Source: a virus
UHGV virus genome: UHGV-1369056
DNA: 39,253 nucleotides
Reading direction: 5' to 3' (one strand)
How positions within the stretch are numbered: position 1 is the stretch's first letter; each line of letters opens with the position of its first letter. Position numbers and translations under genes: made by a program. Shown one piece after another: positions 2,501-38,471 of the stretch. The notes beneath the pieces are model-generated. The model did no database searches, was not told the origin of the DNA, and saw nothing but the letters and a program-made list of their open reading frames with translations.

Positions 2501-2523
2501 ACTTAACTATCACTATAGGACTC
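2501..2523 (+). promoter_or_regulatory. Phage RNAP promoter (-17..+6), ACTTAACTATCACTATAGGACTC
   Basis: Matches the 11-copy consensus cTAAACTATCACTATAGG; the CACTATAG core is identical to the T7 class III core; sits upstream of gene 1. Confidence 0.75.
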
Positions 2524-2592
2524 AAGGTCTAAGACTCCAAGTGAAAGACCAAAGAGACTTTAAGTGAAAGACTAATAACAAGGACTTTAAGT

Positions 2593-5274
2593 ATGAGCGT
2601 CATCTCTATTGAAAAACACGACTTCTCTGATGTGTCGAACGCCATTGAGCCGTTTAACCTGCTGGCTGACCACTACGGGCAAGACCTTGCAGTCAAACAG
2701 CTTCAGCTTGAGCACGAGGCATACACTGAAGGCGAGCGACGTTTCATCAAGAACCTTGAGCGCCAGACTGAGCGCGGGGAACTGGCAGACAATCAGGTCG
2801 CCAAGCCTTTGATGCAGACTCTGGTCCCTAAGATTGCGCAAGCCGTAAGGGAGTGGCATGAAGGGCCAGACGGGAAGCTGTCAACCTCTCGTCCTAGCGT
2901 GGCGTTCACCATGTTGAGCACTGAAGAGAAGGCCGTCAAGGACCGCTCTCTGCGCATCTCATGTGAGTCTGCTGCGGTTATCATACTGAAGGTCATACTC
3001 TCCAAGCTGGTCAAGCCTGAAGGGATACCGATTACACCGATGGCCTCCGCGATAGGTCGCACACTTGAGGACGAAATCCGCTTCGGCCGCATCCGTGACA
3101 AGGAGAAAGAGCACTTCAAGAAGGCGATAGCTGATAACCTGAATAAGCGGGCCGGGGCGTCCTACAAGAAAGCCTACATGCAAGCGGTCGAGGCATCCAT
3201 GCTGGAGCAAGGCCAACTGGAAGATGCGTGGGGGACTTGGAGTCCTACAGAGGCTGTCCACGTTGGCATCAAGATGCTTGAGATTGTCATCCAGTCAACA
3301 CAACTGGTCGAGCTTAAGCGGTACGGTGCTGGCAATGCAGCGGCTGACGTAGAGATGGTCCACCTGTCAGACTGCTGGGTCAAGAAGATGGCACAACGAG
3401 GATTCAGCCTTGCGGGTATCGCTCCAGTCTACCAGCCTTGCGTCGTTCCACCTAAGCCGTGGACTGGTGTCGTAGGCGGTGGGTACTGGGCCAAAGGTCG
3501 CAGACCGCTGCCCCTGATTCGCTTAGGGTCTAAGTCAGCGGTGGCACGTTATGAAGACGTATACATGCCTGAAGTCTATGACGCTGTGAATATCATCCAG
3601 AATACACCTTGGAAAGTGAACAAGAAGGTGCTGGACGTGGTGAACATGGTCGAGAAGTTGAACAACACACCTATTGATGACATCCCTCAGATGGAGCCAC
3701 TGAAGCCTGAAGACTATGCGGGTGAGACTGAAGAGGAACTCAAGGCATGGAAGAAGGCTGCTGCTGGTATCTACCGCCGAGAGAAGGCCCGGCAGTCACG
3801 TAGATTGTCACTGAGCTTTATCGTTAACCAAGCGAACAAGTTCTCTCAGTTCAAGGCCATCTGGTTTCCGTACAACATGGACTGGCGCGGTCGCGTCTAC
3901 GCTGTGCCGATGTTCAACCCTCAGGGTAACGACATGCAAAAGGGTCTCCTGACTCTGGCAGTCGGTAAGCCTATTGGTGCTGATGGTTTCAAATGGCTGA
4001 AGGTCCACGGTGCAAACTGTGCGGGTATTGATAAAGTAACCTTCGAGGAGCGCATCAAGTGGGTGGAAGATAACCACGACAACATCATGGCTACCGCTAA
4101 GGCACCGATGGACAGCATTGAGTGGTGGGGTAAGTTAGACTCTCCGTTCTGCTTCCTAGCGTTCTGCTTCGAGTATGCTGGCGTAATGCACCACGGTTTG
4201 TCTTACTCCTGCTCGCTGCCGATAGCTTTCGATGGGTCCTGCTCTGGGATTCAGCACTTCAGCGCGATGCTTCGTGACCACATCGGTGGGCATGCAGTAA
4301 ACCTAACGCCATCCGGTAAGGTCCAAGACATCTATCGCATTGTGTCTGACCGCATTGAGGAGGAACTCAAAGTCCTGCTGGTTAACGGTACGGACAACGA
4401 GATGGCAACTCACGAGGACAAGAAAACTGGTGAGATTACCGAGCGTCTCAAGCTGGGGACACGAGAGCTGGCCCGTCAGTGGCTGACCTACGGTATGTCA
4501 CGCAAGGTCACTAAGCGTTCGGTCATGACTCTGGCCTACGGGTCGAAAGAGTACGGCTTCGCAGACCAAGTATACGAGGACATCGTGATGCCAGCGATTG
4601 ACTCAGGGTCTGGCGCTATGTTCACTGAACCAAGCCAAGCGTCTCGCTTCATGGCTAAGATGATTTGGGAAGCTGTGAGTGTGACAGTAGTTGCTGCGGT
4701 TGACGCGATGAAGTGGCTTCAAGGTGCTGCCAAGCTGCTGGCTGCTGAGGTGAAGGACAAGAAGACTGGAGAAATCCTGAAGCCTTGTCTTCCGGTACAC
4801 TGGGTCACACCTGATGGGTTCCCGGTATGGCAGGAATACCGCAAGAAGGATACCACTCGTCTGAACCTGATGTTCTTAGGGTCATTCAACCTTCAGCCTA
4901 CAGTCAACAAAGGCACGAAGAAAGAGCTGGACAAGCACAAGCAGGAGTCAGGCATTAGCCCGAACTTCGTCCACTCACAAGATGGTAGCCACCTCCGAAA
5001 GACTGTAGTCCACACTCACCGCAAGTATGGCGTGATGTCATTCGCAGTGATTCACGATAGCTTCGGGACCATCCCGGCTGACGCTGAGTATCTGTTCCGT
5101 GGCGTCCGTGAGACGATGGTAGAGACTTACCGCGACAACGATGTGCTGCTTGACTTCTACGAGCAGTTTGAATACCAGCTTCACGAGAGCCAGCGCGACA
5201 AGTTGCCTGAGCTTCCGAAGAAAGGTAAACTGAATATCGAGGACATCTTGTCTTCAGACTTTGCATTCGCTTAA
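2593..5274 (+). CDS. 1: Single-subunit DNA-directed RNA polymerase (T7 gene 1 homologue)
   Basis: 893 aa; C-terminus ...HSQDGSHLRK...IHDSFGTIPADA...FAFA and many internal blocks are characteristic of T7-type RNAP; SD upstream. Confidence 0.98.
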   Translation: MSVISIEKHDFSDVSNAIEPFNLLADHYGQDLAVKQLQLEHEAYTEGERRFIKNLERQTERGELADNQVAKPLMQTLVPKIAQAVREWHEGPDGKLSTSRPSVAFTMLSTEEKAVKDRSLRISCESAAVIILKVILSKLVKPEGIPITPMASAIGRTLEDEIRFGRIRDKEKEHFKKAIADNLNKRAGASYKKAYMQAVEASMLEQGQLEDAWGTWSPTEAVHVGIKMLEIVIQSTQLVELKRYGAGNAAADVEMVHLSDCWVKKMAQRGFSLAGIAPVYQPCVVPPKPWTGVVGGGYWAKGRRPLPLIRLGSKSAVARYEDVYMPEVYDAVNIIQNTPWKVNKKVLDVVNMVEKLNNTPIDDIPQMEPLKPEDYAGETEEELKAWKKAAAGIYRREKARQSRRLSLSFIVNQANKFSQFKAIWFPYNMDWRGRVYAVPMFNPQGNDMQKGLLTLAVGKPIGADGFKWLKVHGANCAGIDKVTFEERIKWVEDNHDNIMATAKAPMDSIEWWGKLDSPFCFLAFCFEYAGVMHHGLSYSCSLPIAFDGSCSGIQHFSAMLRDHIGGHAVNLTPSGKVQDIYRIVSDRIEEELKVLLVNGTDNEMATHEDKKTGEITERLKLGTRELARQWLTYGMSRKVTKRSVMTLAYGSKEYGFADQVYEDIVMPAIDSGSGAMFTEPSQASRFMAKMIWEAVSVTVVAAVDAMKWLQGAAKLLAAEVKDKKTGEILKPCLPVHWVTPDGFPVWQEYRKKDTTRLNLMFLGSFNLQPTVNKGTKKELDKHKQESGISPNFVHSQDGSHLRKTVVHTHRKYGVMSFAVIHDSFGTIPADAEYLFRGVRETMVETYRDNDVLLDFYEQFEYQLHESQRDKLPELPKKGKLNIEDILSSDFAFA

Positions 5275-5289
5275 CAGCAGGAGAAGTAT

Positions 5290-5520
5290 ATGTCAATGAA
5301 ACTTGTAGCACACAACAAGGCATTCAACGATGGGTCAGGACGTTGCCATGTAGAGCTTACTTATAAGGATTTAGTCATTCTCCGCGAAAGATTACAAGCA
5401 GGTGTGACTGGGTGGATTCAACCTAACGAGTACAACCTTATAGCCTCGATTGATGAAGTGCTTAACGCGTGGAGGGAAGACGAGCGCACTCAATATCCGT
5501 CATTCCCTATGATTAGATAA
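5290..5520 (+). CDS. Hypothetical protein (76 aa), accessory gene between gene 1 and gene 1.1
   Basis: ORF with SD gcaggagaagt upstream; no T7 counterpart recalled at this position. Confidence 0.5.
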   Translation: MSMKLVAHNKAFNDGSGRCHVELTYKDLVILRERLQAGVTGWIQPNEYNLIASIDEVLNAWREDERTQYPSFPMIR

Positions 5521-5530
5521 GGAGAGAGTT

Positions 5531-5820: not shown

Positions 5821-5843
5821 CCTAAACTATCACTATAGGATTA
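5821..5843 (+). promoter_or_regulatory. Phage RNAP promoter, CCTAAACTATCACTATAGGATTA
   Basis: Consensus match; upstream of gene 1.1 (as T7 phi1.1). Confidence 0.8.
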
Positions 5844-5890
5844 GACTCAAGGTCATGACTTAAAGTCGTGGCCTTCATGATTAACCCTAT
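5834..5890 (+). promoter_or_regulatory. RNase III-like processing stem-loop (copy A of 3)
   Basis: Upper stem aaggtcatgac/gtcgtggcctt (5849-5859 / 5865-5875, including G-U pairs) with loop ttaaa, flanked by lower stem tatagg/cctata. Shares the motif agactcaaggtcat...gtggcctt with copies at 12895 and 35630, with compensatory changes. Confidence 0.55.
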
Positions 5891-6094: not shown

Positions 6095-6096
6095 AC

Positions 6097-7493: not shown

Positions 7494-7503
7494 CTAAACG
7501 TCA

Positions 7504-7540
7504 ACCCAGTGGTCTTCGGACTGCTGGGTTTCTTTGCTTT
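7504..7540 (+). terminator. Intrinsic terminator (early TE analogue) with UUCG tetraloop
   Basis: 11-bp stem acccagtggtc/gactgctgggt with loop ttcg, followed by ttctttgcttt; located just after the ligase gene, where T7 TE lies. Confidence 0.7.
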
Positions 7541-7576: not shown

Positions 7577-7599
7577 CCTAAGCTATCACTATAGGACAA
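7577..7599 (+). promoter_or_regulatory. Phage RNAP promoter, CCTAAGCTATCACTATAGGACAA
   Basis: Consensus match (one deviation, G at -12); upstream of gene 1.6. Confidence 0.7.
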
Positions 7600-8402: not shown

Positions 8403-8557
8403 CTGAGGTTGAGAAGAAATACATCGTGGAGCTTGAGGGTCGCGTTCAGTCCTTCGAGGTTCCGGTGTACGCAAAGTCTCTCGAAGAGGCTACCTTGAAG
8501 TCCCAAGAGTATGAGGACGCTGGGTTTGTGGTCGGACGGATTCGTCCTGAGGCCTAA
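8399..8557 (+). CDS. 2: Gp2-like inhibitor of host RNA polymerase
   Basis: [35 protein letters not shown] matches T7 Gp2 (SFEVPIYAETLDEA...AGFEVTRVRP). ATG 8399 with SD aaggag is preferred over the GTG at 8321 used by the ORF track. Confidence 0.8.
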
Positions 8558-8575
8558 ACTATCACTGTAGGACAG
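8553..8575 (+). promoter_or_regulatory. Phage RNAP promoter variant (CACTGTAGG core), CCTAAACTATCACTGTAGGACAG
   Basis: Consensus match except G at -3; upstream of the SSB gene (T7 phi2.5 position). Confidence 0.55.
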
Positions 8576-10692: not shown

Positions 10693-12677
<1,985 letters not shown>

Positions 12678-12958: not shown

Positions 12959-15130
12959 ATGTTTGACCTTAAGAGTATCTGGGGTTCTGACATCGAGACC
13001 AACGGTCTCCTTGATACAGTCTCCCAGTTTCACTGTGGGGTCCTGATTAACGCCGAGTCGAATGAGACCCTTAAGTATGGGGTAGCTCCGATGGTCGGTA
13101 TCGTCGGTGGCTTCAAAGAGTATGTTCATAAAGTGGAAGAGATTGCCGCATCGCCTGATGGTATGCTGGTATTTCACAACGGTATCAACTATGACGTACC
13201 GGCTATCGACAAGCTGAAGCGTCTGTACTTTGGGAAACGTTTTAACTTCCCGAAACACAAGATGATTGATACATTGGTGCTGGGACGCTTGATGTATCCA
13301 AACATCAAGTTCTCAGACATGGGAGCGGTGAAAGCTGGTCGTCTGCCGCCTCAGATGATGGGACGCCAGTCTCTTGAGGCTTGGGGTTATCGTCTTGGTG
13401 AGATGAAGGGTGAGTACAAGCATGATTACGTTGCCAAATGCAAGGCTGAAGGTATCAAATATAAGGCTGGGGACGAATGGTTGTTCCCGTCTCAGGAGAT
13501 GCTGGACTATAACGTTCAAGACGTTGTGGTAACACTGGCTTTGTTCAAGAAGTTCCTGACTGACAAGTATTACTTCCAGTCTGAACAGTTCGCTTTCGAC
13601 CAGATTTATGCGTTGCGTCTGGAACATGATGCTGCGTGGACCTGTGCGAAGATGGAACGTAACGGATATCCGATGAACATCGAGATGGTCGAAGGCTTAT
13701 ATCGTGAACTCACCGTCAAACGTGCAGAGTTGCTGGACAAGCTGCGTTCGACTTTCGGTAGCTGGTACGCACCAAAGGGAGGCAAGGAGTTCTTCAAGCA
13801 CCCACGGACAGGCAAGGACCTTCCGAAGTATCCGCGAGTCGTGTACCCTAAGGTAGGTGGCATCTTTAAGAAGCCGAAGAACAAAGCTCAACGCTTAGGT
13901 CTTGAACCTTGTGAACGCGATACGCGAGACACGATGGAGGGAGCACCGTTCACACCTATCACCTACGTTGAGTTTAATCCGGGAAGCGGAGACCACTTAG
14001 CGAAAGTCTTGATGGAGCGGGGCTGGGAGCCTGTGGACTTCACTGACACAGGGAAACCTGTAGTCGATGACGAGACGTTAGAACACGTTAAGTTGCCAGA
14101 CGCAGAGGCTCAGGCTTGCGTAGAGCTGGTCCGTGAGTATCTGGTAGTCCAGAAGCGCATAGGTCAGGCGGCTGAAGGTAAGAACGCATGGTTGAAACTT
14201 GTAGGTCCAGACGGACGTATGCACGGTTCAATCAACCCATGCGGGGCAGTAACCGGACGTGCGACTCACAGTTCACCAAACATGGCTCAGGTCCCTGCTA
14301 ACGGTGCTCCGTATGGTGAGATTTGCCGTGGTGCTTTCGGTGCAGCTTGGAACAAGACGGATGGTAAGCCAGACCCTTGGATTCAAGTGGGTGTGGATGC
14401 TTCAGGTCTTGAGCTTCGTTGTCTTGGGAACAGAGCGGCTCCGTTTGATGGTGGTGCATATGCGAAGACTGTGGTCGAAGGTGACATCCACTGGGCCAAC
14501 GCAGTAAACGCTGGGTTAGCACCTAACGTCCCACGCGATAAGTCGAGCCACGACCATGATGCTTTCCGTGACAACGCTAAGACGTTCATCTATGCGTTCC
14601 TGTATGGTGCAGGGGCCGCTAAGATTGGACTGATAGTAGGCGGTGGGAAGAAGGAAGGTTCAGCTCTCATGAAGAAATTCATTGAGGGTACACCAGCCAT
14701 CAAAGACCTCAGGGAAGCTGTGAGTAATACGTTAATCTCAGACTCTAAGTGGGTGGACGGTGAGAATATCGTCAAGTGGAAACGCCGTTGGTTGCGTGGA
14801 CTTGATGGTCGCCGTATCCACATCCGGTCGCCGCACTCAGCACTGAACGCATTACTTCAAGGTGATGGTGCGGTAGTCTGTAAGCACTGGATGGTTCTGA
14901 CGGAGAAGAAACTTGAGGAGGCTGGTTATGGTAACGGTTGGGATGGGGACTTTGCGCTAATGGCTTGGATTCACGACGAATTGCAGATTGCGTGTCGTAC
15001 TCAGGAGATTGCCGAAGAAGTCGTCCGTATTGCACAAGAAGCAATGCGTGAGGTCGGACGTTTTTATAACTTCAAGTGTGAGCTTGATACGGAGGGTAAG
15101 ATTGGACCAACGTGGAAAGAATGCCATTGA
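12959..15130 (+). CDS. 5: DNA polymerase (T7 gp5 homologue, family A)
   Basis: Exo motif DIETNGL, FHNG.NYDVPA, GEMKGEYK, YNVQDVVVT, HPRTGK.LPKYPR, KVGGIFKKPKNKAQR, AVTGRATH, DASGLELRC, DNAKTFIY.FLYGAG, HDE.Q and C-terminal GPTWKECH match T7 gp5. ATG 12959 with SD ggagga is preferred over ATG 12923, which lies inside the upstream hairpin. Confidence 0.97.
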   Translation: MFDLKSIWGSDIETNGLLDTVSQFHCGVLINAESNETLKYGVAPMVGIVGGFKEYVHKVEEIAASPDGMLVFHNGINYDVPAIDKLKRLYFGKRFNFPKHKMIDTLVLGRLMYPNIKFSDMGAVKAGRLPPQMMGRQSLEAWGYRLGEMKGEYKHDYVAKCKAEGIKYKAGDEWLFPSQEMLDYNVQDVVVTLALFKKFLTDKYYFQSEQFAFDQIYALRLEHDAAWTCAKMERNGYPMNIEMVEGLYRELTVKRAELLDKLRSTFGSWYAPKGGKEFFKHPRTGKDLPKYPRVVYPKVGGIFKKPKNKAQRLGLEPCERDTRDTMEGAPFTPITYVEFNPGSGDHLAKVLMERGWEPVDFTDTGKPVVDDETLEHVKLPDAEAQACVELVREYLVVQKRIGQAAEGKNAWLKLVGPDGRMHGSINPCGAVTGRATHSSPNMAQVPANGAPYGEICRGAFGAAWNKTDGKPDPWIQVGVDASGLELRCLGNRAAPFDGGAYAKTVVEGDIHWANAVNAGLAPNVPRDKSSHDHDAFRDNAKTFIYAFLYGAGAAKIGLIVGGGKKEGSALMKKFIEGTPAIKDLREAVSNTLISDSKWVDGENIVKWKRRWLRGLDGRRIHIRSPHSALNALLQGDGAVVCKHWMVLTEKKLEEAGYGNGWDGDFALMAWIHDELQIACRTQEIAEEVVRIAQEAMREVGRFYNFKCELDTEGKIGPTWKECH

Positions 15131-15245
15131 CGGAAAGTCCCAGCACTTCACTGGTGCTGCTAGTGAGCTATATGCAAGCTTTAGGCTGACAGCCAATGGG
15201 CATCAAGTGTTCCTCCCAGCATTCACGCAGTCAAAGGCAGACTTG

Positions 15246-15500
15246 GTGGTCGATATAGACGGGACCCTTACGAGGGTTCAGGTCAAGACCGGAACGAAGC
15301 TGAAGAACTGTAATAGCATACAGGTAAGGCTGGGAGGATGTGGTAAGCCGACTTACAGTCCTGGAGACATCGACCTACTAGCGGTTGTTTATCAGGATTT
15401 CCTCTGGCTTATACCGTTCACTGAAGAGGTTAGAGTCAAGACCTCTATGTGTATAAACTTAACGTCTGACAAGAAGTACGGACAATTTAAACAGGAGTAA
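15246..15500 (+). CDS. Hypothetical protein with a PD-(D/E)xK-like motif; start codon uncertain (no in-frame ATG)
   Basis: The frame is open from 14988 (inside gene 5) to 15500 with no ATG after the gene 5 stop; GTG 15246 (SD-like aaagg ~9 nt upstream) or GTG 15207 are possible starts. Contains DLVVDIDGTLTRVQVKTG, resembling the PD...(D/E)xK nuclease core; rich in rare codons (agg, ata, aga, cta). Confidence 0.3.
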   Translation: MVDIDGTLTRVQVKTGTKLKNCNSIQVRLGGCGKPTYSPGDIDLLAVVYQDFLWLIPFTEEVRVKTSMCINLTSDKKYGQFKQE

Positions 15501-15505
15501 CACTA

Positions 15506-15790
15506 ATGGCTATTACTAAACGTATTCGTGTAAGTTTCGACCTGAAGATGGTTATTAACTCAAAGGAAGAAGAGACCGTGTGTCGCCAACTGGCTGAGAT
15601 GACTAAAGCCTACGCTGATGGTGAGAAGTTGGATGGGCTTCAGTTGGCTCTGGTCAAAGCAGCAATCGAGTCAGGCCCTGAGTCTGCCCTTGAAATTGTC
15701 GCCAAGAAGAACATCAAGGAAGAGCTGGTAGACTCCTTTGGTGAGGGCCAGTTCGGTGTGTCCAACCTGCGATTCGAGGTCAAGCAATGA
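15506..15790 (+). CDS. 5.5: gp5.5-like protein (H-NS-binding protein homologue)
   Basis: N-terminus MAITKRIRVSFDL resembles T7 gp5.5 (MAMTKKFKVSFDV); position between genes 5 and 5.7. Confidence 0.75.
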   Translation: MAITKRIRVSFDLKMVINSKEEETVCRQLAEMTKAYADGEKLDGLQLALVKAAIESGPESALEIVAKKNIKEELVDSFGEGQFGVSNLRFEVKQ

Positions 15791-16985: not shown

Positions 16986-17008
16986 ACTAAACTATCACTA
17001 TAGGGACT
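16986..17008 (+). promoter_or_regulatory. Phage RNAP promoter, ACTAAACTATCACTATAGGGACT
   Basis: Consensus match; upstream of gene 6.5 (as T7 phi6.5). Confidence 0.8.
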
Positions 17009-17069
17009 TTAGGACCTAAGATATGACTATAAGATAGACTTTAGTCTTAACTTAAAGAGGAGATTCAAG

Positions 17070-18242: not shown

Positions 18243-19811
18243 ATGGCTGAACGTGAAGGGTTCGCTGCTGAAGGAGCCAAAGCGGTCTATGACCGACTGA
18301 AGAACGGTAGACAGCCATATGAGACACGCGCTCAGAACTGTGCTGCTGTCACTATCCCGTCACTGTTTCCTAAGGAGTCCGACAACTCGTCTACTGAGTA
18401 CACAACTCCGTGGCAAGCTGTAGGTGCTCGCTGTTTGAACAACTTGGCTGCAAAGCTGATGTTGGCGTTATTCCCTCAGTCACCGTGGATGCGACTGACA
18501 GTCTCCGAATATGAGGCCAAGACCTTGAGTCAGGACTCAGAGGCTGCTGCGCGTGTTGACGAAGGGCTTGCTATGGTCGAGCGTGTGTTGATGGCCTACA
18601 TGGAGACTAACAGTTTCCGTGTGCCATTGTTCGAAGCTCTGAAGCAGCTTATCGTCTCCGGTAACTGTCTGCTCTACATTCCAGAGCCTGAACAGGGTAC
18701 TTACAGTCCTATGCGAATGTACCGCTTAGTGTCCTACGTTGTTCAACGTGATGCTTTCGGTAATATCTTGCAGATTGTGACTCTCGACAAGGTAGCGTTT
18801 AGTGCTCTACCGGAAGACGTTAAGTCCCAACTCAACGCAGACGACTATGAGCCTGACACCGAGCTGGAAGTGTATACGCACATCTACCGTCAGGACGACG
18901 AGTATCTGCGCTACGAGGAAGTGGAAGGCATTGAGGTAGCAGGGACCGATGGTTCTTACCCACTGACTGCCTGTCCGTACATCCCGGTTCGAATGGTTCG
19001 ACTGGACGGTGAAGACTATGGTCGTTCTTATTGCGAGGAGTATCTTGGGGACCTGAACTCGCTGGAGACGATTACAGAAGCTATCACCAAAATGGCTAAG
19101 GTAGCCTCCAAGGTGGTGGGCCTCGTTAACCCGAACGGTATCACGCAACCTCGTCGTCTGAACAAGGCGGCTACAGGTGAGTTCGTGGCCGGTCGCGTTG
19201 AGGACATCAACTTCCTGCAACTGACGAAAGGTCAGGACTTTACGATTGCCAAGTCGGTAGCTGACGCTATCGAGCAACGTTTAGGCTGGGCCTTCCTTCT
19301 TAATAGTGCTGTTCAGCGTAATGCTGAGCGAGTGACTGCTGAAGAGATTCGTTATGTTGCTGGAGAACTGGAGGCGACCTTAGGTGGCGTGTACTCAGTA
19401 CAATCCCAAGAGCTTCAGTTACCTATCGTCCGTGTGCTGATGAACCAGCTTCAGTCTGCTGGCATGATTCCTGACCTTCCGAAAGAAGCGGTAGAGCCTA
19501 CGGTATCCACAGGTCTTGAAGCGTTAGGTCGTGGTCAGGACTTGGAGAAGCTGACTCAGGCAGTCAACATGATGACTGGTCTTCAGCAGCTCTCTCAGGA
19601 CCCAGACATCAACTTGCCGACCCTTAAGCTGCGACTTCTGAACGCTCTGGGTATCGACACCGCTGGTCTTCTGCTGACTCAGGACGAGAAGATGCAACGT
19701 ATTGCTGAACAATCCGCTCAAGGAGCTGTGGTCAACGGTGCGTCTGCTGCTGGTGCCAACATGGGTGCTGCTGTAGGTCAGGGAGCTGGTGAGGACATGG
19801 CTCAAGCCTAA
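18243..19811 (+). CDS. 8: Head-to-tail connector (portal) protein, gp8 homologue
   Basis: 522 aa in the gene 8 position, the size of T7 portal (536 aa); SD aaggaggtga. Confidence 0.9.
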   Translation: MAEREGFAAEGAKAVYDRLKNGRQPYETRAQNCAAVTIPSLFPKESDNSSTEYTTPWQAVGARCLNNLAAKLMLALFPQSPWMRLTVSEYEAKTLSQDSEAAARVDEGLAMVERVLMAYMETNSFRVPLFEALKQLIVSGNCLLYIPEPEQGTYSPMRMYRLVSYVVQRDAFGNILQIVTLDKVAFSALPEDVKSQLNADDYEPDTELEVYTHIYRQDDEYLRYEEVEGIEVAGTDGSYPLTACPYIPVRMVRLDGEDYGRSYCEEYLGDLNSLETITEAITKMAKVASKVVGLVNPNGITQPRRLNKAATGEFVAGRVEDINFLQLTKGQDFTIAKSVADAIEQRLGWAFLLNSAVQRNAERVTAEEIRYVAGELEATLGGVYSVQSQELQLPIVRVLMNQLQSAGMIPDLPKEAVEPTVSTGLEALGRGQDLEKLTQAVNMMTGLQQLSQDPDINLPTLKLRLLNALGIDTAGLLLTQDEKMQRIAEQSAQGAVVNGASAAGANMGAAVGQGAGEDMAQA

Positions 19812-19829
19812 ACTATCACTATAGGAACA
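19807..19829 (+). promoter_or_regulatory. Phage RNAP promoter, CCTAAACTATCACTATAGGAACA
   Basis: Consensus match; upstream of the scaffold gene (as T7 phi9). Confidence 0.8.
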
Positions 19830-20812: not shown

Positions 20813-20835
20813 ACTAAACTATCACTATAGGGAGA
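20813..20835 (+). promoter_or_regulatory. Phage RNAP promoter with GGGAGA initiation region, ACTAAACTATCACTATAGGGAGA
   Basis: Best consensus copy; +1 to +6 GGGAGA as in the strongest T7 promoters; upstream of the major capsid gene (as T7 phi10). Confidence 0.9.
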
Positions 20836-22112: not shown

Positions 22113-22116
22113 TTGA

Positions 22117-22156
22117 AACCCCTTGGGTGCCTTCGGGTGCTTGAGGGGTTTTTTTT
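22117..22156 (+). terminator. T-phi-like late terminator
   Basis: aaCCCCTTGGGtgccttcgggtgcTTGAGGGGTTTTTTTT: GC-rich hairpin plus T-run, very similar to the T7 T-phi sequence (AACCCCTTGGGGCC...TCTTGAGGGGTTTTTTG) and in the same place after the capsid gene. Confidence 0.9.
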
Positions 22157-22166
22157 CGGAGGATTA

Positions 22167-22598
22167 ATGAAGGTATGTATAGGATGCCACACGGAGAAGG
22201 ACTTGGGGTCTTTCACGCCAAATGGCAGGACATGTAAGGGCACACAGAAATACAGAAGCAGATGCCGAGAGTGCGAGAACTCAAGGCAGGCTGCCATACG
22301 AGAGGAAGCTCCCAACAAATCACGATACTCAGCGGAAAGACTTAAAGGCTACCAACTTAAAAGCTCGTTCGGTATGACATATGACGAGTGGTTCTCCCTT
22401 ATGGAGTCTCGTGGTTGGGCCTGTGAGATTTGCTCGCGAACAGTAGAGACATCTGGTAGAACACTGGCTGTAGACCACAGTCACTCCACTGGTGAAATAC
22501 GAGGCGTGCTTTGTCAGAGGTGCAACTGTGCCATAGGACTCCTAAGTGAGAATCCAGAGCATATTGCAAACGCTATACGCTACCTTAAAGGAGATTAG
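22167..22598 (+). CDS. HNH endonuclease (endonuclease VII-like), probable homing endonuclease
   Basis: HNH motif AVDHSHSTGEIRGVLCQRCNCAIG plus N-terminal Cys cluster CIGCH...C...CREC. ATG 22167 with SD ggagga is preferred over 22113, which lies in the terminator. Codon usage atypical for this genome (aga, agg, ata). Confidence 0.8.
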   Translation: MKVCIGCHTEKDLGSFTPNGRTCKGTQKYRSRCRECENSRQAAIREEAPNKSRYSAERLKGYQLKSSFGMTYDEWFSLMESRGWACEICSRTVETSGRTLAVDHSHSTGEIRGVLCQRCNCAIGLLSENPEHIANAIRYLKGD

Positions 22599-22600
22599 TA

Positions 22601-23167
22601 ATGGCTCAATACATTCCACTGAATGCTAACGATGACTTAGACGCCATCAACGATATGTTAGCTGCTATCGGTGAACCAGCAGTCCTACAGCTTGACGAGG
22701 GGAACGCTGATGTCTCGAACGCTCAACGTATACTGCATCGTGTCAATCGTCAGGTCCAAGCTAAAGGCTGGAACTTTAACATCAACGAAGCTGCTGTCCT
22801 GACACCTGATGTCCAAGACAATAGGATTCGATTCCTTCCGTCATACCTTCGTGTAATGACTGCTGGGGCCACCAGCTACTACAGCAACATGGGTGGATAC
22901 CTGTACGACCTGTCCACTCAGTCAACCACTTTCACTGCCCCTATCACGGTAGAGCTTGTGGAGATGAAGCCATTCTCCGAGATGCCTGTGGTCTTCAGGG
23001 ACTACATCGTCACTAAAGCTAGCCGTGAGTTCAACGCTAAGTTCTTCGGTAGCCCAGAGTCAGAGCTATACCTTCGTGAGCAGGAAGCAGAACTCTATCA
23101 GCAGGTTATGGAGTACGAGATGGACACTGGTCGCTACAACATGATGTCAGACATCGGGAGGGACTAA
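22601..23167 (+). CDS. 11: Tail tubular protein A, gp11 homologue
   Basis: 188 aa; INDMLAAIGEP, RILH.VNRQVQAKGWNFNI, RDYIVTKASREFN.KFFG.PE and MEYEMD.G.YNM match T7 gp11. Confidence 0.93.
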   Translation: MAQYIPLNANDDLDAINDMLAAIGEPAVLQLDEGNADVSNAQRILHRVNRQVQAKGWNFNINEAAVLTPDVQDNRIRFLPSYLRVMTAGATSYYSNMGGYLYDLSTQSTTFTAPITVELVEMKPFSEMPVVFRDYIVTKASREFNAKFFGSPESELYLREQEAELYQQVMEYEMDTGRYNMMSDIGRD

Positions 23168-23394
23168 TGGCTAGTCACAACCTGAAGATTCACCGCCAGC
23201 ACTTTGGTCCGGTACAGCTAGGTCTAAAGACAGCAGAGCTGAGACTTAACGACCGGGACTTTAAGGTTGGCGATTGGCTTATCCTGAATGAATGGGACAA
23301 CGGGTATACTGGACAACAGGTAGCGCGTAAGGTTGTCCACATTGCTGACGTTGGTGACATCGCTGAAGGATACGTCCTAATGAGTATGATTTAA
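23167..23394 (+). CDS. DUF3850-like (ASCH/PUA-like fold) small protein
   Basis: 75 aa; LKIHRQHFGPVQLGLKTAELRLNDRDFKVGDWLILNEW fits my recollection of the DUF3850 pattern (H.LKI.P.YF..V..G.KT.E.R.NDRDF.VGD.L.L.E); start overlaps the gp11 stop (TAATG). Confidence 0.55.
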   Translation: MASHNLKIHRQHFGPVQLGLKTAELRLNDRDFKVGDWLILNEWDNGYTGQQVARKVVHIADVGDIAEGYVLMSMI

Positions 23395-25768: not shown

Positions 25769-25818
25769 AAGGGCCTATAGATTTACCTTAACTATCACTA
25801 TAGGGACTATAGGCCCTT
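25769..25818 (+). promoter_or_regulatory. 12-bp perfect inverted repeat (aagggcctatag / ctataggccctt) bracketing a phage promoter
   Basis: Arms at 25769-25780 and 25807-25818; the promoter core lies in the ~26-nt loop; only read-through transcripts from upstream would contain both arms. Confidence 0.5.
25786..25808 (+). promoter_or_regulatory. Phage RNAP promoter, CCTTAACTATCACTATAGGGACT
   Basis: Consensus match; upstream of gene 13 (as T7 phi13). Confidence 0.8.
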
Positions 25819-32100: not shown

Positions 32101-33067
32101 CCTGTTAGATGCTGGACGTCAAGGCTTCCTGTCTGACATCGTGGAGCATAGCCTGACTGGTAGTAAGCGTAAGTTCGATGACCGCTGGCTGAAGACCGCT
32201 GGTATATCTGACGAGCAGTGGAAGGGCATTAAGTCATTAATCCGTGAGTCAGTGACTCGTGGTCCAGACGGGAAGTACACCATCAAGGATAAGAGGGCGT
32301 TCAGTCAGGACCCAAGGGCTATGGACCTGTGGCGTATGGGTGACACCATCGCTGACGAAACGTTACTCCGGCCCCACAAGCTGTCAAACATGGATGCCAA
32401 GGCTTATGGTCCTCTCGCTAAGACTGTCCTTCAGTTTAAGAACTTCGTCATCAAGTCCATCAATGGACGTACCATGCGAACCTTCTATAACGCCACGAAG
32501 AACAACCGAGCGATGGATGCTGCTCTATCTACCGTGATGTCTATGGGTCTGGCTGGTATCTACTACATGGCTCAGGCTCACGTCAAGGCTTACGCTATGC
32601 AGGATGGCAGAGACCGTGAATACCTCAAGCAAGCTCTTGACCCGACGATGATTGGTTATGCGGCTCTGTCCCGTAGTTCACATCTGGGTGGTCCACTTGG
32701 GGTAGCTAACATTCTGGGTGGCATCGCTGGGTATGAGGACACTAAGATGCTCCGTTCGTCTATCCTACCTCGTTCGCCTACAGAGAAGCCTGAACGTGCC
32801 ATCGCGTATGGTGCGGCTACAAGTGACCCTGTTATGAATGTTGTTGGTAACTTCTTGGAGCAGGTTCCAGCTTTCGGATATGCTGCTAACGTTGGCGCTT
32901 CGGCTTACAACTTGGCTGGCTACCTCAAGGCTGATACTCGCGTCAACGAGCGTGACTACATGACCGGGATGTATAATACGTTCCGTGAACTGGTTCCGAA
33001 CGACCCAATTACCCAGAAGCTGTTACTTGGAACGTTTGAGGAGCAAGGCATCCACATCAAGGACTAA
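29180..33067 (+). CDS. 16: Internal virion protein D (gp16 homologue) with a divergent N-terminal domain
   Basis: 1295 aa; from ~residue 200 onward long blocks match T7 gp16 (STWFGFGAATEAE, ARETARN, LVRSPTGMQSGASGK, NPAMFG, GTYVPHVY, SRPEVK.RVDE, KAYGISH, NSFLEARNLFDSD, AYNRRVNGDIAIMA, ILTGRARR, GTTNYLLDA, DPRAMDLWR, ALSRSS, FMTGM, VPNDP). The N-terminal ~190 aa (MATRGIRNNNPGNIR...) do not match the T7 transglycosylase domain. Confidence 0.93.
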   Translation: MATRGIRNNNPGNIRVSKDQWEGMTGDDGAFVTFDSPESGVRALGKNLLSYGRRGYDSIEKIINRWAPPNENDTKAYIDSVVAATGIPATQSLDLSDPDTLSSLAQAISFHETGSRYDPEVYQKGVARALNGISPKTPPVSANVFDALTEGLKAKPKAALGENLPTAAGLNIEGQAPEAPNESFGEMFYKSTGKTMQEREDRSTWFGFGAATEAEVKNSMVGVAIRAGQTEDSLDVIGDVFNPTRWNNHKWSREELDQIRNAGVLPQYYGVITGGSPQNLTELINLALENQKLDQEKAKAGIGAQLAAGVIGAGVDPLTYVPIAGQVGKGGKLVNKMFTVAAQSGALAGVSEMARTSVAGGDAHVAEAILGGALFGGGMTAIADGLGRALGRNTNEFAGPATRLEARETARNVDGQDLSRLPIQEGEETFSHQGVKLADVPNEPGSVRLEDGSILIGENPLNPKTRKVFDEVIEPERAAAGVNLGGLTEIGLKLLRSENPEIRGVAADLVRSPTGMQSGASGKIGTTASDVFERLRAVDHRFYNDIDDAVTEALKDPYFQTAFWRDSGAFRQDIYQRVSMAIEDGSGNLKAELTPGELKVYDLLKNQFDAKREMMENPAMFGRPDAQSIFPGSRFKGTYVPHVYSNQMKELYIKELGSPEALQEAIKKSWLTSYASRPEVKKRVDEALLEADPTLTPEGLAAAVDKYANDKAYGISHTEQFERSSVMEENINGLVGLENNSFLEARNLFDSDMSIVLPNGQTFSVNNLREWDMDKIVPAYNRRVNGDIAIMAGTGKTTKEMKDLVETMMNKAGDDGKLKGEVSTLRDTLKILTGRARRDGADDAAFATVMRTMTDLSFFAKNAYMGVQNLTEIGGMLARGNVRAMLHGVPIFRDLAFRNKKVGASEIKDLHNVIFGKELDDSIRPSKQDVIDRLRSYSDLGRGTATALGTAKYYTGELAVRSPFTKVLNGTTNYLLDAGRQGFLSDIVEHSLTGSKRKFDDRWLKTAGISDEQWKGIKSLIRESVTRGPDGKYTIKDKRAFSQDPRAMDLWRMGDTIADETLLRPHKLSNMDAKAYGPLAKTVLQFKNFVIKSINGRTMRTFYNATKNNRAMDAALSTVMSMGLAGIYYMAQAHVKAYAMQDGRDREYLKQALDPTMIGYAALSRSSHLGGPLGVANILGGIAGYEDTKMLRSSILPRSPTEKPERAIAYGAATSDPVMNVVGNFLEQVPAFGYAANVGASAYNLAGYLKADTRVNERDYMTGMYNTFRELVPNDPITQKLLLGTFEEQGIHIKD

Positions 33068-33085
33068 ACTATCACTATAGGAAAC
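33063..33085 (+). promoter_or_regulatory. Phage RNAP promoter, ACTAAACTATCACTATAGGAAAC
   Basis: Consensus match; overlaps the gp16 stop; upstream of the tail fibre gene (as T7 phi17). Confidence 0.8.
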
Positions 33086-33131: not shown

Positions 33132-35132
33132 ATGTCCACGATTACACAATTCCCTTCAGGAAACACTCGGTACAGGATTGAGTTCGACTACCTAGCCAGA
33201 ACGTTTGTTGTTGTTACGCTGGTGAATAGCTCTAACCCTGCCCTGAACCGTGTACTAGAAGTTGGTCGAGATTACCGATTCCTTAATCCAACGATGATTG
33301 AGATGTTGGCTGACCAATCAGGTTTCGACGTCGTTCGTATTCACCGTCAGACTGGAACTGACTTAGTGGTAGACTTCAGGAATGGCTCAGTGTTGACAGC
33401 TAGTGACCTGACCAATTCGGAGCTTCAGGCTATCCATATTGCAGAAGAAGGGCGAGACCAAACTGTTGACTTAGCGAAGGAATATGCCGATGCTGCTGGT
33501 AACTCTGCTGGCAGCGCTAAGGATAGCGAGGACGAAGCACGACGAATAGTTTCGAGTATCAGGGAGGCTGGTCTAATTGGCTATATTACCCGTAGCTCCT
33601 TCGAGAAAGGCTTCACCGTTACACTATGGAACGAGGTCCTGCTAAGGGAAGAGGATGGTTATTATTACCGCTGGGATGGTGCTCTCCCAAAAACAGTGCC
33701 TGCAGGTTCAACCCCTGATTCCAATTGGACTAACGTAGGTAAGCTGAATGGGCTTGATGAGCACTCACCTGAGAACTTTGGGGCAATCCCGAACGACCCC
33801 AGCTTTGACTGTCTACCTGCTATAAAATTGGCCATAGCTACAGGCACATTAAACCTTGATGGCAAGGCTACCTACCACGTAACAGATGAGGTTGTTATCC
33901 CCTCTTACCTACGTGGGAATCTAAATGGGGCAACAATTAAAGCAATTGGTCCAACATGGCCTGCATTAAAATCTGTTGTTCGTGTTAGTAAATTTCCTAT
34001 TGGAACCAAAACCGTTGATGTAGCTAATACTGAGAACCAAGTACGAGGGCTACGTTTGATTGGCAGTCTTAACATAGACTGTGCAGACATTGCATCGTAT
34101 GGTTTTTACGCACGACTAATGTGTGCAGAATCCGAGATGGGTAGTATCTATGCATATAATGCTAATAGATATGGCATTGTAATGTTTGCTTGCTGGTATT
34201 TTCAAATGGGTACTCTCCATGCAAACAACTGTGCAAGGGGCGTGGCATTAGGTTATTCAACGGAAGGTGAGCAAGGGGATACCTATGTAAATGCTACACA
34301 CTTCCCTCACATTAGTGCATGGGGTACAGATAAGTCTACTGGACTAGGTTATGACCCAATCACAGATGATGCGAGTAAATATACGATAGGTGCTGGTATT
34401 ATCTTAGGTCGTGGTTTATCTACTAGTGTTGGTGTGATTTGCTCTGAGAATACATCTGGTGCTGGTGTGGTAACAATGGACCCTGCTGCGTGGGACATTG
34501 GGGTTATGTACTGCGAGGGCAACAGTAAAGACTTCACTCAGGTGGGTGAGCCGAAGGTATCATTATTGTCGTCTAAGGCTAACAGCGAGAGTCATACACT
34601 TACCATCTCTACACTTCACCTATCTGCTGGTTGTGGTATCTTAACCAGAAGTAATCAAGAGCGTGTGCTAATCAGAAGTCTTTATCGTTTTGATAATTCA
34701 AGAACCTTCCACTCCTATTGCACAGCAGACACAGTAGAGGTTGGTAGCAGCAACTACTATGTACTTAACGGGCATAATTACAACGCACCTGCTGCACTTA
34801 TTAAGGAACCCCTTAATGTAGATTTTGTGCGCTCAGGGCTGACTTTGAGTGAGTGGACAACTACCGTTATCGGTCATTTCGCCGGTAGTACAGCAGAACA
34901 GCAGCTTTATGTTAAGTTGCCAGCAAGTCCCAGTGGTCTGGACCTACAGATAGCTAGTGAGGAGGGGACAGAATATATCACTGTAACCGGTACAGATTTT
35001 AAAGCATCTCTAACTAAGAAAAGACTACCCAGTAAATTATATGAGATAAGGATTGGTGGGGTATCTACAGTACCCGTTGCCGATTGCTCTGTTCTAATTA
35101 GAAGTAGGAAAGGTGATTGGTACTACTGGTAA
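33132..35132 (+). CDS. 17: Tail fibre / tailspike protein (gp17 homologue): conserved N-terminal adaptor domain plus divergent C-terminal domain
   Basis: The N-terminal ~150 aa (FDYLAR.FVVVTL...DYRF...DF.NGSVL.A.DL...[12 protein letters not shown]) match the T7 gp17 N-terminus. The remainder is unrelated to T7, AT-richer, with Gly/Asn-rich repetitive segments that suggest a beta-helix. Confidence 0.9.
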
Positions 35133-35629: not shown

Positions 35630-35679
35630 GTGTTAGACTCAAGGTCATTACTATATGTAGTGGCCTTTATGGTTAACAC
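35630..35679 (+). promoter_or_regulatory. RNase III-like processing stem-loop (copy C of 3)
   Basis: Lower stem gtgtta/taacac, upper stem aaggtcattac/gtagtggcctt, loop tatat; between genes 18 and 18.5, as T7 R18.5. Confidence 0.55.
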
Positions 35680-35730
35680 TAACTAGTGGAGGCGACTCTA
35701 CGTGAAATCTGATAAACCGGGAGGGCAACT

Positions 35731-36168
35731 ATGCTCGAATTTTTAAAGAGAGCGGCTCCGTGGTTACTTGCAGCAGTGATGTTTGCTGGTGGCTACCACA
35801 CCGCTAACAATAAGTGGGAGGCTAAGGTCAATGCAGAATACACCTCGAATCTTAAGGCATCGGAAGATACAAGGCTTGCTGTCCAAGCTGAAGTCAACAA
35901 AGTGTCCAAACGGTTTCAGGACGAAATGTCCTCGTTGGAAGGCAGCACTGATAGGATTATTGCTGACCTTAAGTCTGACAATAAGCGGCTGCGCGTCAAG
36001 GTCAACACCTCAGGTCTCACCGAGTCAGATGTCAGTCGATGCTTCCCTAATGGTAGAGTCGAACTACACCCAGAAACTTCTAAAAGTCTTATCCGAATAA
36101 CTCAGGAGGCAGACCTTAAGGAGAAGGCGCTTCAGGACACAATAAGGAGGCTCCAAGGTGTTAAGTGA
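35731..36168 (+). CDS. 18.5: i-spanin (Rz-like, gp18.5 homologue)
   Basis: 145 aa, N-terminal transmembrane segment (WLLAAVMFAGGY), coiled-coil-like remainder; position after gene 18. Confidence 0.8.
   Translation: MLEFLKRAAPWLLAAVMFAGGYHTANNKWEAKVNAEYTSNLKASEDTRLAVQAEVNKVSKRFQDEMSSLEGSTDRIIADLKSDNKRLRVKVNTSGLTESDVSRCFPNGRVELHPETSKSLIRITQEADLKEKALQDTIRRLQGVK
35831..36100 (+). CDS. 18.7: o-spanin (Rz1-like lipoprotein, gp18.7 analogue) embedded in the +1 frame of gene 18.5
   Basis: Embedded ORF contains a signal-like KAALIGLLLTLSLTISG followed by Cys (lipobox-like ISGC; Cys codon at 35990-35992) and a Pro/Ser-rich mature part. Start uncertain (ATG 35831 or 35783). Confidence 0.5.
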   Translation: MQNTPRILRHRKIQGLLSKLKSTKCPNGFRTKCPRWKAALIGLLLTLSLTISGCASRSTPQVSPSQMSVDASLMVESNYTQKLLKVLSE

Positions 36169-36595
36169 TTACTACAAAGTGGACCAGGCGAGTCCATCCG
36201 GTCTGGTCTCCGTTAGGACTGGAAAGCCTGTGGGGACATTAAGTCGGATGGGATATTGGATAGTACAGACACGAAGTCTAGGCAGTAAGCGGGCACATCG
36301 CGTGATATGGGAACTAACCAATGGTCCTATACCACATGGTATGCAAATAGATCACATCGACAGGAACCCCAGCAATAATACCTTAAGTAACTTACGGCTC
36401 GTTACTGCCGCTGAGAACACTTGGAATACGGGTAGCCATTATGACTCTAAGACGGGAGTGAAGTGCGTTACCCGTCACCAGAATGGTTATAGGATTCAGG
36501 TTAAACGCGGGAATGTCTATATGCGAACAACACGTCCTACTTTAGAGGAGGCTATCTCTGTCCGGGACCTAATGCTGGAGGGACTCTATGTCTAA
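36158..36595 (+). CDS. HNH homing endonuclease
   Basis: HNH motif [26 protein letters not shown]; GTG start at 36158 with strong SD aaggagg 7 nt upstream, overlapping the 18.5 stop; codon usage atypical (ata, agg, aga); inserted between 18.5 and 19. Confidence 0.8.
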
Positions 36596-38354
36596 GAAAA
36601 CACCTGTTGAAAGACAGGCAGAAATGACCCGAAGGATGAGGGACGACTTCGTATTCTTCATCTTCGTTCTCTGGAAAGCTCTTAGCCTTCCGGTTCCAAC
36701 ACGCTGCCAGATAGATATGTGTAAGAAGCTGGCTGCTGGGGATAATCGCCGCTTCATCCTTCAGGCTTTCCGTGGTATCGGCAAGTCGTTTCTGACCTGT
36801 GGTTTCGTGGTCTGGAAGTTATGGAACAACCCAGACTTGAAGTTCATGATTGTGTCGGCCTCAAAGGAACGAGCCGATGCGAACTCCATCTTCATCAAGC
36901 GAATCATCGACCTCATGCCTCAGCTTCAGGAACTCAAACCTAAGCAGGGACAGCGAGATGCGGTTATTAGCTTCGACGTTGGGCCAGCCAAGCCAGACCA
37001 CTCACCTTCGGTTAAGTCTGTTGGTATCACTGGTCAGTTGACTGGTAGTCGTGCTGACATCCTGATTGCCGATGACGTGGAGGTTCCGAACAACTCAGCG
37101 ACTCAGGCTGCCAGAGACCGTCTGTCAGAGCTTGTGAAAGAGTTCGACGCTATCCTGAAGCCGGGAGGTACAATCATCTATCTGGGTACTCCTCAGAACG
37201 AGATGACCTTGTATCGTGAGCTGGAAGGCCGTGGATACACCACTACTATCTGGCCTGCTCGTTATCCACGTGATAAGAAGGACTGGCAGTCTTACGGCGA
37301 CCGTCTGGCACCGATGCTTCAGGCAGAGCTGGAAGAGGACCCTGAGTCCTTCTACTGGCGTCCTACCGATGAAGTACGATTCGATGATACGGACCTGAAG
37401 GAACGTGAGCTGTCTTATGGTAAAGCTGGCTTCGCTCTACAGTTCATGCTTAACCCTAACCTGAGTGATGCCGAGAAGTACCCTCTGAAGCTCCGTGACC
37501 TTATCGTAGCAGACTTGGACCCAGCGTCTAGCCCAATGGTCTACCAATGGCTTCCTAACCCTCAGAACAAGCGTGAGGACGTTCCTAACGTTGGACTCAT
37601 GGGTGACTCATACCACACGTATCAGACTGTAGGTTCTGCCTTCAGCTCGTACACCCAGAAGATTCTGGTCATTGACCCTAGTGGTCGTGGTAAGGATGAA
37701 ACTGGATATGCGGTACTATACCAGCTCAACGGCTACATCTTCGCTATGGAAGTTGGTGGTATGCGTGGAGGTTATGAAGACTCTACTCTGGAAGCTCTGG
37801 CTAAGATTGGTCGTAAGTGGAAGGTCAACGAATACGTCATTGAGGGTAACTTCGGTGATGGTATGTACCTTGAGTTATTCAAGCCTGTAGCGGCCCGTAT
37901 CCATCCTGCGGCTGTAACTGAAGTGAAGAGTAAGGGTCAGAAGGAACTCCGCATCTGTGACGTTCTGGAGCCTATCATGGGGTCTCACAGACTTATCGTT
38001 AACGCTGCTGCTATCGTCCAAGACTACCAGTCAGCCTCTGATAAGGATGGTGTTCGTAACCCTATCTACTCTCTCTTCTACCAGATGACCCGTATCTCTC
38101 GTGAACGTGGAGCCTTGGCACACGATGACCGACTTGATGCGCTGGCTATCGGTGTACAGTTCTTCGTTGAGTCTATGGCTAAGGATGCCAACAAAGGCGA
38201 ACGTGAAGTCACTGAGGAGTGGCTGGAGGAACAGATGGAGAACCCACGGAAAGGCTTCGAGTCCATCCACACTGAGTTCTGGGACAATGGGGTCCGAGTA
38301 ACTCACGATACGGACGACGAGCTGGGACTAGGGGCCTACGTTACGTTTCACTAG
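36588..38354 (+). CDS. 19: Terminase large subunit (gp19 homologue)
   Basis: 588-aa ORF in the gene 19 position (T7 gp19 is 586 aa); Walker A-like QAFRGIGKS and Walker B-like ILIADDVE. Confidence 0.97.
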
Positions 38355-38363
38355 CTGAATGAA

Positions 38364-38412
38364 TAACTATAGGTGAAAGCTGCATGAATAAGCAGTTAGT
38401 AACCTATAGTTA
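38364..38412 (+). promoter_or_regulatory. 11-bp perfect inverted repeat (taactataggt / acctatagtta) with nested inner stem, directly after the terminase gene
   Basis: Arms at 38364-38374 and 38402-38412; the loop contains the inner stem ctgc/gcag; no T-run follows, so not a canonical intrinsic terminator. Confidence 0.45.
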
Positions 38413-38448
38413 CTACCAGTCTAACCTACTGTTTTACAAGGAGTTTAG

Positions 38449-38471
38449 ACTTAACTATCACTATAGGGAAG
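38449..38471 (+). promoter_or_regulatory. Phage RNAP promoter near the right end, ACTTAACTATCACTATAGGGAAG
   Basis: Consensus match; located after gene 19, where T7 phiOR lies. Confidence 0.8.

Follow-up and report, generated by a model that had tools for sequence, protein, structure and literature searches.

Phage K1F and its relatives in the genus Kayfunavirus transcribe their genes with a single-subunit RNA polymerase (RNAP) whose promoters differ from those of T7. This polymerase/promoter pair is already known, and it has served for orthogonal expression since 2012. Here we analyze the virus genome UHGV-1369056, a stretch of 39,253 nt (hereafter the window; positions are those of the whole stretch and + is the strand as given), which carries a T7-like RNAP gene and eleven copies of a promoter-like sequence. 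With a probability of about 0.96, we assign it to a K1F-like coliphage (genus Kayfunavirus, subfamily Studiervirinae) that uses the known K1F-type RNAP/promoter pair. A first-pass annotation, made from the letters alone, had presented the promoter consensus and the matching changes in the RNAP specificity loop as a distinct and potentially orthogonal pair.

Known K1F-type polymerases and promoters

The base-specific contacts of T7 RNAP in the major groove are made by R746, N748, R756, and Q758 of the specificity hairpin (summarised in PMC11880802), and K1F represents one of the nine natural RNAP specificity clusters (PMC11880802). Temme et al. (2012) replaced the hairpin of T7 RNAP (Q744-I761) by that of K1F, and introduced the K1F consensus at positions -12 to -7 of the T7 promoter (PMC3458549). 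The resulting T7(K1F)/P_K1F pair gave 17-fold induction and was orthogonal to the T7, T3, and N4-type pairs (PMC3458549). Table 2 of PMC11880802 lists this graft as "754S, 756N, 761V - ACTAT". The native K1F RNAP and P_K1F have since served as a mutator and expression system for a broad range of hosts. This pair is orthogonal to those of MmP1 and VP4, with a 46,470-fold change on target vs 6- to 27-fold on non-cognate promoters (PMC12218169).

Other members of the genus have been studied as well. The RNAP of phage Ro45lw was purified by Takatsuki et al. (2025), who mapped +1 to a G and defined the minimal promoter ACTTAACTATCACTATAGGGA, spanning -17 to +4 (PMC12272871). In a 2026 genome note, the CTWAACTATCACTATAGG repeats of the Kayfunavirus Sparklingdew were interpreted as promoters (PMC13298934).

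A polymerase with the K1F specificity loop

The polymerase of the window and its specificity loop are encoded at the following positions.

2593..5274, + strand: gene 1, T7-like single-subunit RNA polymerase, 893 aa (Pfam RNA_pol and RPOL_N)
4852..4905, + strand: specificity beta-hairpin TTRLNLMFLGSFNLQPTV, equivalent to T7 Q744-I761

The protein has two Pfam domains, RNA_pol (PF00940, E 1.8e-106) and the phage/mitochondrial N-terminal domain RPOL_N (PF14700, E 8.4e-15), and phmmer aligned it end to end with the T7 RNAP structures (1276 bits, residues 1-893 vs 1-883). Its fold and domain organisation are those of T7 RNAP, to which it is 63.7% identical, with identities of 99.0% to gp1 of K1F and 99.3% to gp1 of phage EcoDS1. 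At the nucleotide level, the gene is 96% identical to many records named Kayfunavirus or described as podophages of E. coli, Salmonella, or Citrobacter.

We compared the specificity loop with the T7 RNAP of PDB entries 1aro and 1cez and in a MAFFT alignment of six RNAPs (T7, T3, K11, SP6, K1F, and the window). In T7 numbering, R746, N748, and Q758 are kept, while Q754 is replaced by S, R756 by N, and I761 by V; the residues aligned to T7 746, 748, 754, 756, 758, and 761 are R756, N758, S764, N766, Q768, and V771 of the window enzyme. The first-pass annotation had read the four changes and identities at 748, 754, 756, and 758 in the same way. It also had the loop peptide right, LNLMFLGSFNLQPTVNKGTKKELDKH, yet it placed it at 4864-4930, which starts one codon late and does not span whole codons; the peptide is encoded at 4861-4938. 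R746, which reads position -7, is conserved in all six polymerases, and the specificity hairpin aligns without gaps to those of T7, T3, and K11.

The loop is the one described for K1F. The hairpin and the surrounding 52 aa are identical to K1F and EcoDS1, and the combination of N748, N756, and Q758 with S754 and V761 corresponds to the list "754S, 756N, 761V" of PMC11880802. When the 52 aa centered on the loop were searched with tblastn, 136 phage records matched at 99% identity or more, and 63 others at 95-99%.

Eleven promoters of the K1F type

We searched both strands of the window for the pattern TAAACTATCACTATAGG with at most three mismatches, and used dinucleotide-preserving shuffles as a control. 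There were exactly 11 matches, all on the + strand (2503, 5823, 7579, 8555, 10906, 16988, 19809, 20815, 25788, 33065, and 38451), in line with the number of shared sites given in the first-pass annotation. The number expected by chance is 0.06, and none of the 100 shuffles reached 11. The 11 sites match the consensus cTAAACTATCACTATAGG, or, written in full, (A/C)CT(A/T)AACTATCACTATAGG(G/A). They extend exactly over the span 2501-38471 that had been noted initially, whose limits are -17 of the first site and +6 of the last one. Each of them is on the coding strand and occupies a gene end or an intergenic region, ahead of genes 1, 1.1, 1.6, 2.5, 4, 6.5, 9, 10, 13, 17, and 19.5.

2501..2523, + strand: gene 1 promoter ACTTAACTATCACTATAGGACTC, +1 at 2518, 75 nt upstream of gene 1 (RNAP)
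5821..5843, + strand: gene 1.1 promoter CCTAAACTATCACTATAGGATTA, +1 at 5838, followed by an RNase III-like hairpin
7577..7599, + strand: phi1.6 CCTAAGCTATCACTATAGGACAA, +1 at 7594, G at -12 as in EcoDS1 phi1.6 and K1F 7183
8553..8575, + strand: phi2.5 CCTAAACTATCACTGTAGGACAG, +1 at 8570, G at -3 as in EcoDS1 phi2.5 and K1F 8499
10904..10926, + strand: gene 4 promoter ACTAAACTATCACCTTAGGGATG, +1 at 10921, lowest score (30.8 bits)
16986..17008, + strand: phi6.5 ACTAAACTATCACTATAGGGACT, +1 at 17003, counterpart of the annotated EcoDS1 phi6.5
19807..19829, + strand: phi9 CCTAAACTATCACTATAGGAACA, +1 at 19824, counterpart of the annotated EcoDS1 phi9
20813..20835, + strand: phi10 ACTAAACTATCACTATAGGGAGA, +1 at 20830, upstream of the major capsid gene, EcoDS1 counterpart at 20819
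25786..25808, + strand: phi13 CCTTAACTATCACTATAGGGACT, +1 at 25803, counterpart of EcoDS1 phi13
33063..33085, + strand: phi17 ACTAAACTATCACTATAGGAAAC, +1 at 33080, upstream of the tail spike gene, counterpart of EcoDS1 phi17
38449..38471, + strand: phiOR ACTTAACTATCACTATAGGGAAG, +1 at 38466, counterpart of the annotated EcoDS1 phiOR, precedes gene 19.5

A weight matrix built from these sites (23 nt, -17 to +6, information 28.5 bits) scored them between 30.8 and 37.2 bits, and the next-best position anywhere on either strand at 14.7 bits. This large gap leaves no grey zone of weaker candidates. Accordingly, the matrix scan of the window for additional, weaker promoters gave none that was credible. 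The best one, at 17015-17037 on the + strand (14.7 bits), is a degenerate promoter-like copy, CCTAAGATATGACTATAAGATAG, which begins 29 nt after the phi6.5 promoter does.

The gene 1 promoter and phiOR are 81% identical over 47 nt (2473-2519 and 38421-38467, + strand), the similarity extending 30 nt upstream of the promoter. In T7, phiOL and phiOR are linked to replication, and the sites at 2501 and 38449 would be their analogs. One could thus ask whether the 11 repeats are some other dispersed phage signal, involved in RNA processing, replication, or packaging, and the extended upstream similarity of these two sites would fit such a role. Yet the core of the 11 repeats, CACTATAGG, is that of the T7 promoter from -7 to +2, every site lies on the coding strand ahead of a gene, and the RNase III-like hairpins lie farther downstream, as elements of their own. 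Moreover, a Kayfunavirus RNAP in purified form transcribes from the same sequence, and its +1 was mapped to the G (PMC12272871). We therefore rejected the idea of a non-promoter signal, which is scarcely conceivable given the T7-like core, the placement on the coding strand, and transcription by the purified enzyme.

Comparison with the promoters of T7, T3, K11, and SP6

We rebuilt the consensus sequences of T7, T3, and K11 from the promoters annotated in the fetched records, and set them beside that of the window (-17 to +6).

T7: TAATACGACTCACTATAGGGagA, 17 sites, CGACT at -12 to -8
T3: aATTAACCCTCACTAAaGGGAGa, 14 sites, ACCCT at -12 to -8
K11: AATTAGGgCaCACTATagGGAAC, 2 sites, GGGCA at -12 to -8
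Window: aCTAAACTATCACTATAGGaaaa, 11 sites, ACTAT at -12 to -8

The window and T7 share CACTATAGG at -7 to +2, and indeed all bases from -8 to +2. They differ at -12 to -9 (ACTA vs CGAC) and at -17 to -13 (aCTAA vs TAATA). Hence, the contrast between ACTAT and CGACT proposed in the first-pass annotation holds against the 17 annotated T7 promoters, and the elements that it had given for T3 and K11 were correct as well. For SP6, we take the element to be GGTGA; the first 8 kb of the unannotated SP6 record gave only two imperfect matches. A search of the window for promoters of the T7, T3, K11, or SP6 type, with at most three mismatches, found none.

The element ACTAT is present in 10 of the 11 sites. 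The remaining one, phi1.6, has GCTAT, as it does in K1F and EcoDS1. Three promoters (gene 1, phi13, and phiOR) deviate by TTAAC, like their counterparts in these two phages, and the CCTTAGG of the gene 4 promoter is also found at EcoDS1 11107 and K1F 10866. The first six transcribed positions of phi10 (+1 to +6) are GGGAGA, the class III start of T7.

The same pair in K1F, EcoDS1, and more distant relatives

The closest described systems are K1F (NC_007456) and EcoDS1 (EU734172), with which the window is collinear save for cassette-like gaps. K1F has 11 matches to the motif, syntenic with those of the window, and their 17-nt cores are identical, including the deviations of each site. The GenBank record of EcoDS1 annotates 11 "phi" promoters, the early terminator TE, a late terminator, and phiOR, all syntenic with the window; its promoter names, among them phi1.6, phi2.5, phi6.5, phi9, phi13, phi17, and phiOR, correspond one to one with our sites. 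The differences between the promoters of the window and those of these two phages are restricted to the variable position -17 and to +3 to +6 of a few sites, and in EcoDS1 to -17 of two sites. For instance, the gene 1 promoter is identical to the "phi" annotated at 2244 of EcoDS1 and to the K1F site at 2474, while that of gene 1.1 is identical to K1F 5552 and differs from the promoter annotated at 6034 of EcoDS1 at -17 only. EcoDS1 has a twelfth, weak match with three mismatches, at 38955, which is not annotated as a promoter.

The same features extend to other phages. Phage HC12 (RNAP 98.0% identical to that of the window, 11 sites) and the Pectobacterium phage LET1 (93.2%, 12 sites) both have S754, N756, and Q758 together with the same consensus, and CTWAACTATCACTATAGG is common to the window, K1F, EcoDS1, HC12, LET1, Sparklingdew, and Ro45lw. 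Ro45lw resembles the window in its genus and in its promoter, ACTTAACTATCACTATAGGGACT, which equals phi13 of the window at -16 to +6 and phiOR at -17 to +4; the latter stretch is its minimal promoter. At the scale of the genome, many Kayfunavirus genomes show a nucleotide identity of 93-96% to the window, and about 90% of its first 25 kb can be aligned to Kayfunavirus records at 93-94% identity.

Around 1% of the RNAP residues differ from K1F, and one may wonder whether this isolate has a pair that is functionally distinct, i.e., a new specificity variant within Kayfunavirus. This is very improbable. The hairpin and its surroundings show no difference from K1F or EcoDS1, the 11 promoter cores are base for base those of K1F, and even the more distant HC12 and LET1 keep the loop residues and the consensus. 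The sequence identity to K1F effectively refutes such a variant.

The window thus agrees with the K1F-type group in RNAP family, loop residues, promoter consensus, and whole-genome relatedness and synteny. All the defining features that we tested place it in the K1F specificity group, and nothing in the sequence speaks against a K1F-like pair. The novelty implied by the first-pass annotation does not stand: it had named an earlier description of the same consensus and loop residues as what would overturn it, and both have already been described for the genus Kayfunavirus.

Proposed transcription scheme and promoter recognition

The layout of the window resembles that of T7, which also has promoters before 1.1, 1.6, 2.5, 6.5, 9, 10, 13, and 17, phiOR, TE, and Tphi, with 17 promoters in total vs 11 here. 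The two terminators of the window are as follows.

7503..7540, + strand: early terminator TE, a 12-bp stem and a T-run after the ligase gene (-20.2 kcal/mol, z = -4.0)
22115..22157, + strand: late terminator Tphi, a 17-bp G+C-rich stem followed by T8, after gene 10 (-31.1 kcal/mol)

Both are syntenic with terminators annotated in EcoDS1, and 175 phage records keep the Tphi sequence with a conservation of 99% or more. The host RNA polymerase would transcribe the early region, to which gene 1 belongs, as far as TE. The gene 1 RNAP would then transcribe the middle and late genes from the 11 phage promoters, starting at the first G of GG, with partial termination at Tphi after the capsid gene. With a phage promoter 75 nt before it, gene 1 would be under positive control by its own product. 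T7 differs in this respect, since its leftmost phage promoter, phiOL, is near the left end of the genome (405), as is that of T3 (366), whereas the window has one directly upstream of gene 1.

Two copies of a 49-nt sequence (5841-5889 and 35633-35681, + strand; 84% identical) each form a long hairpin with an internal loop, with energies of -17.7 and -23.4 kcal/mol (z about -3.3). The first copy closely follows the gene 1.1 promoter and the second precedes gene 18.5, positions that match the RNase III processing sites R1.1 and R18.5 of T3 and T7.

The specificity loop would be the main determinant of promoter choice, this beta-hairpin reading the major groove from -12 to -7. The retention of R746 and Q758 would match the unchanged C at -7 and T at -8, and R756N, with Q754S and I761V, would accompany the change from CGAC to ACTA at -12 to -9. 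Orthogonality to T7 would then come from the absence of this Arg, which in T7 reads the G:C pair at -9. The assignment of residues to bases at -9 to -12 in the window enzyme is ours, by comparison with T7, and our search for a structure of a K1F RNAP-promoter complex turned up none. That such a loop should confer ACTAT specificity, and that the enzyme should start at the G of this promoter, is suggested by what others have shown, the former on identical or near-identical parts and the latter on native Kayfunavirus polymerases. The altered specificity and potential orthogonality put forward in the first-pass annotation are thus supported, as they have been demonstrated for this loop and promoter (PMC3458549, PMC12218169, PMC12272871).

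Several caveats apply to this account. N748 is kept even though -11 and -10, its contacts in T7, both differ in the window, and N756 is also found in K11, where -9 is a C. These two observations imply that there is no code of one residue for one base, and that recognition is combinatorial. In addition, the minimum ratio of cognate to non-cognate activity in the set of Temme et al. was 8, so that the orthogonality of the grafted loop is limited (PMC11880802), and the K1F loop needed the additional change M750R to work in a split polymerase (PMC4299498).

A possible second contact at the upstream element

Outside the hairpin, the promoters of the window also differ from those of T7 in the upstream element, and the polymerase in the segment aligned to the AT-rich recognition loop.

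2863..2904, + strand: region aligned to the T7 AT-rich recognition loop (T7 ~93-101), GPDGKLSTSRPSVA; the alignment is uncertain here

In the window, positions -17 to -13 read (A/C)CT(A/T)A. None of the 56 strong sites of the window, K1F, EcoDS1, HC12, and LET1 departs from C at -16 or T at -15, and the information of these two positions (1.7 and 1.6 bits, respectively) equals that of core positions. T7, T3, and K11 have only A or T from -17 to -13, in an element that is read through the minor groove, where the native sites thus have a G:C pair at -16. In the alignment of the six RNAPs, GPDGKLSTSRPSVA is 2 aa longer than KAKRGKRPTA of T7 and is followed by an insertion of around 11 aa, although this segment is aligned with uncertainty. 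The synthetic P_K1F promoter built by Temme et al. in 2012 reportedly keeps the TAATA upstream element of T7, unlike the native sites of the window.

We infer that the segment GPDGKLSTSRPSVA may read -17 to -13. Going further, the native RNAP might have a second co-evolved contact, where a remodelled AT-rich loop reading this element adds substantially to discrimination. This is a tentative proposal, and rather unlikely in our judgment, as is its corollary that the native pair would be more orthogonal than the T7(K1F) graft. It would account for the invariance and information content of -16 and -15, set against the A/T-only elements of T7, T3, and K11, and for the altered loop segment and the insertion that follows it. 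It would also fit the modest orthogonality, and the weakness in a split context, of a graft that combines TAATA with the AT-rich loop of T7. Finally, truncation of the Ro45lw promoter tolerated only the loss of 3' bases, the 5' A at -17 being needed (PMC12272871). On the other hand, three loop substitutions and ACTAT suffice to switch the specificity of T7 RNAP (PMC3458549, PMC11880802), the covariation analysis of PMC11880802 picked only positions 748, 756, and 758, and the alignment near the AT-rich loop is the uncertain part. A search for mutational data on -16 found none, and neither the AT-rich loop nor the upstream element is discussed in PMC11880802.

Genome ends and accessory genes

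The window holds the terminal repeat of the phage in a single copy, at its right end. Its last ~200 nt (39056-39253) align to positions 1-200 of K1F and EcoDS1, which are the left terminal repeat of those phages, and its position 1 aligns to K1F 201 and EcoDS1 245. A search for a direct terminal repeat of at least 40 nt joining the two ends of the window found none.

Outside the transcription system, the window differs from K1F in the tail spike, in early genes, and in two extra HNH endonuclease open reading frames (ORFs); it differs from EcoDS1 in the tail spike, some early genes, and the HNH insertions. Several regions of note are listed below.

15127-15775: stretch separating the DNA polymerase gene from gene 5.5, unmatched at the nucleotide level in K1F and EcoDS1
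22167-22598, + strand: ORF of 143 aa between Tphi and gene 11, Recombination endonuclease VII/His-Me finger (PF02945, E 1.6e-19)
23167-23394, + strand: DUF3850/ASCH-domain ORF of 75 aa between tail genes 11 and 12
33132-35132, + strand: gene 17, tail spike of 666 aa, with a T7 tail-fibre N-terminal domain and a Tail_spike_N domain
36248-36595, + strand: HNH_3 endonuclease ORF of 115 aa between gene 18.5 and gene 19 (PF13392, E 3.6e-21)

At the end that corresponds to 15127-15775, the DNA polymerase gene of K1F is interrupted by the insertion of an HNH endonuclease. The 143-aa ORF lies in a stretch (22154-22583) that is missing from K1F and EcoDS1, and among 50,697 phage records, none covers it at 80% or more in nucleotides. 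In phage Penshu1 alone, part of it remains at the corresponding position (45% covered, 88% aa identity), and the other relatives are below 40% aa identity and occur mainly in Klebsiella podophages. This ORF is probably a recently acquired homing endonuclease. The HNH_3 ORF is a second free-standing HNH insertion, in a region (36094-36635) without counterpart in K1F or EcoDS1. A small ORF equal in size to the DUF3850/ASCH one is found at the same position in EcoDS1, HC12, and LET1.

The C-terminal two-thirds of the tail spike, especially 33719-35128, are unrelated to the endosialidase that forms the tail spike of K1F, and to gp17 of EcoDS1. Overall, the gene is 99.3% identical to that of Escherichia phage TM1. 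It also matches, at 98.1% identity, a record named "Enterococcus phage EFA-1", an odd host label given that the gene is of the Kayfunavirus type.

Implications for Kayfunavirus polymerases

As a discovery, the pair carried by this genome has little weight: the K1F pair is a standard part in synthetic biology, native Kayfunavirus polymerases have been purified, and their promoters have been mapped. Our analysis does confirm that a reader of the raw sequence had reconstructed a real covariation between an RNAP and its promoters. The C at -16 together with the altered AT-rich loop is the only under-explored aspect, of mild and modest novelty. If the second contact exists, combining the N-terminal loop and the upstream element with the known hairpin may give polymerase/promoter pairs far more orthogonal than the T7(K1F) graft.

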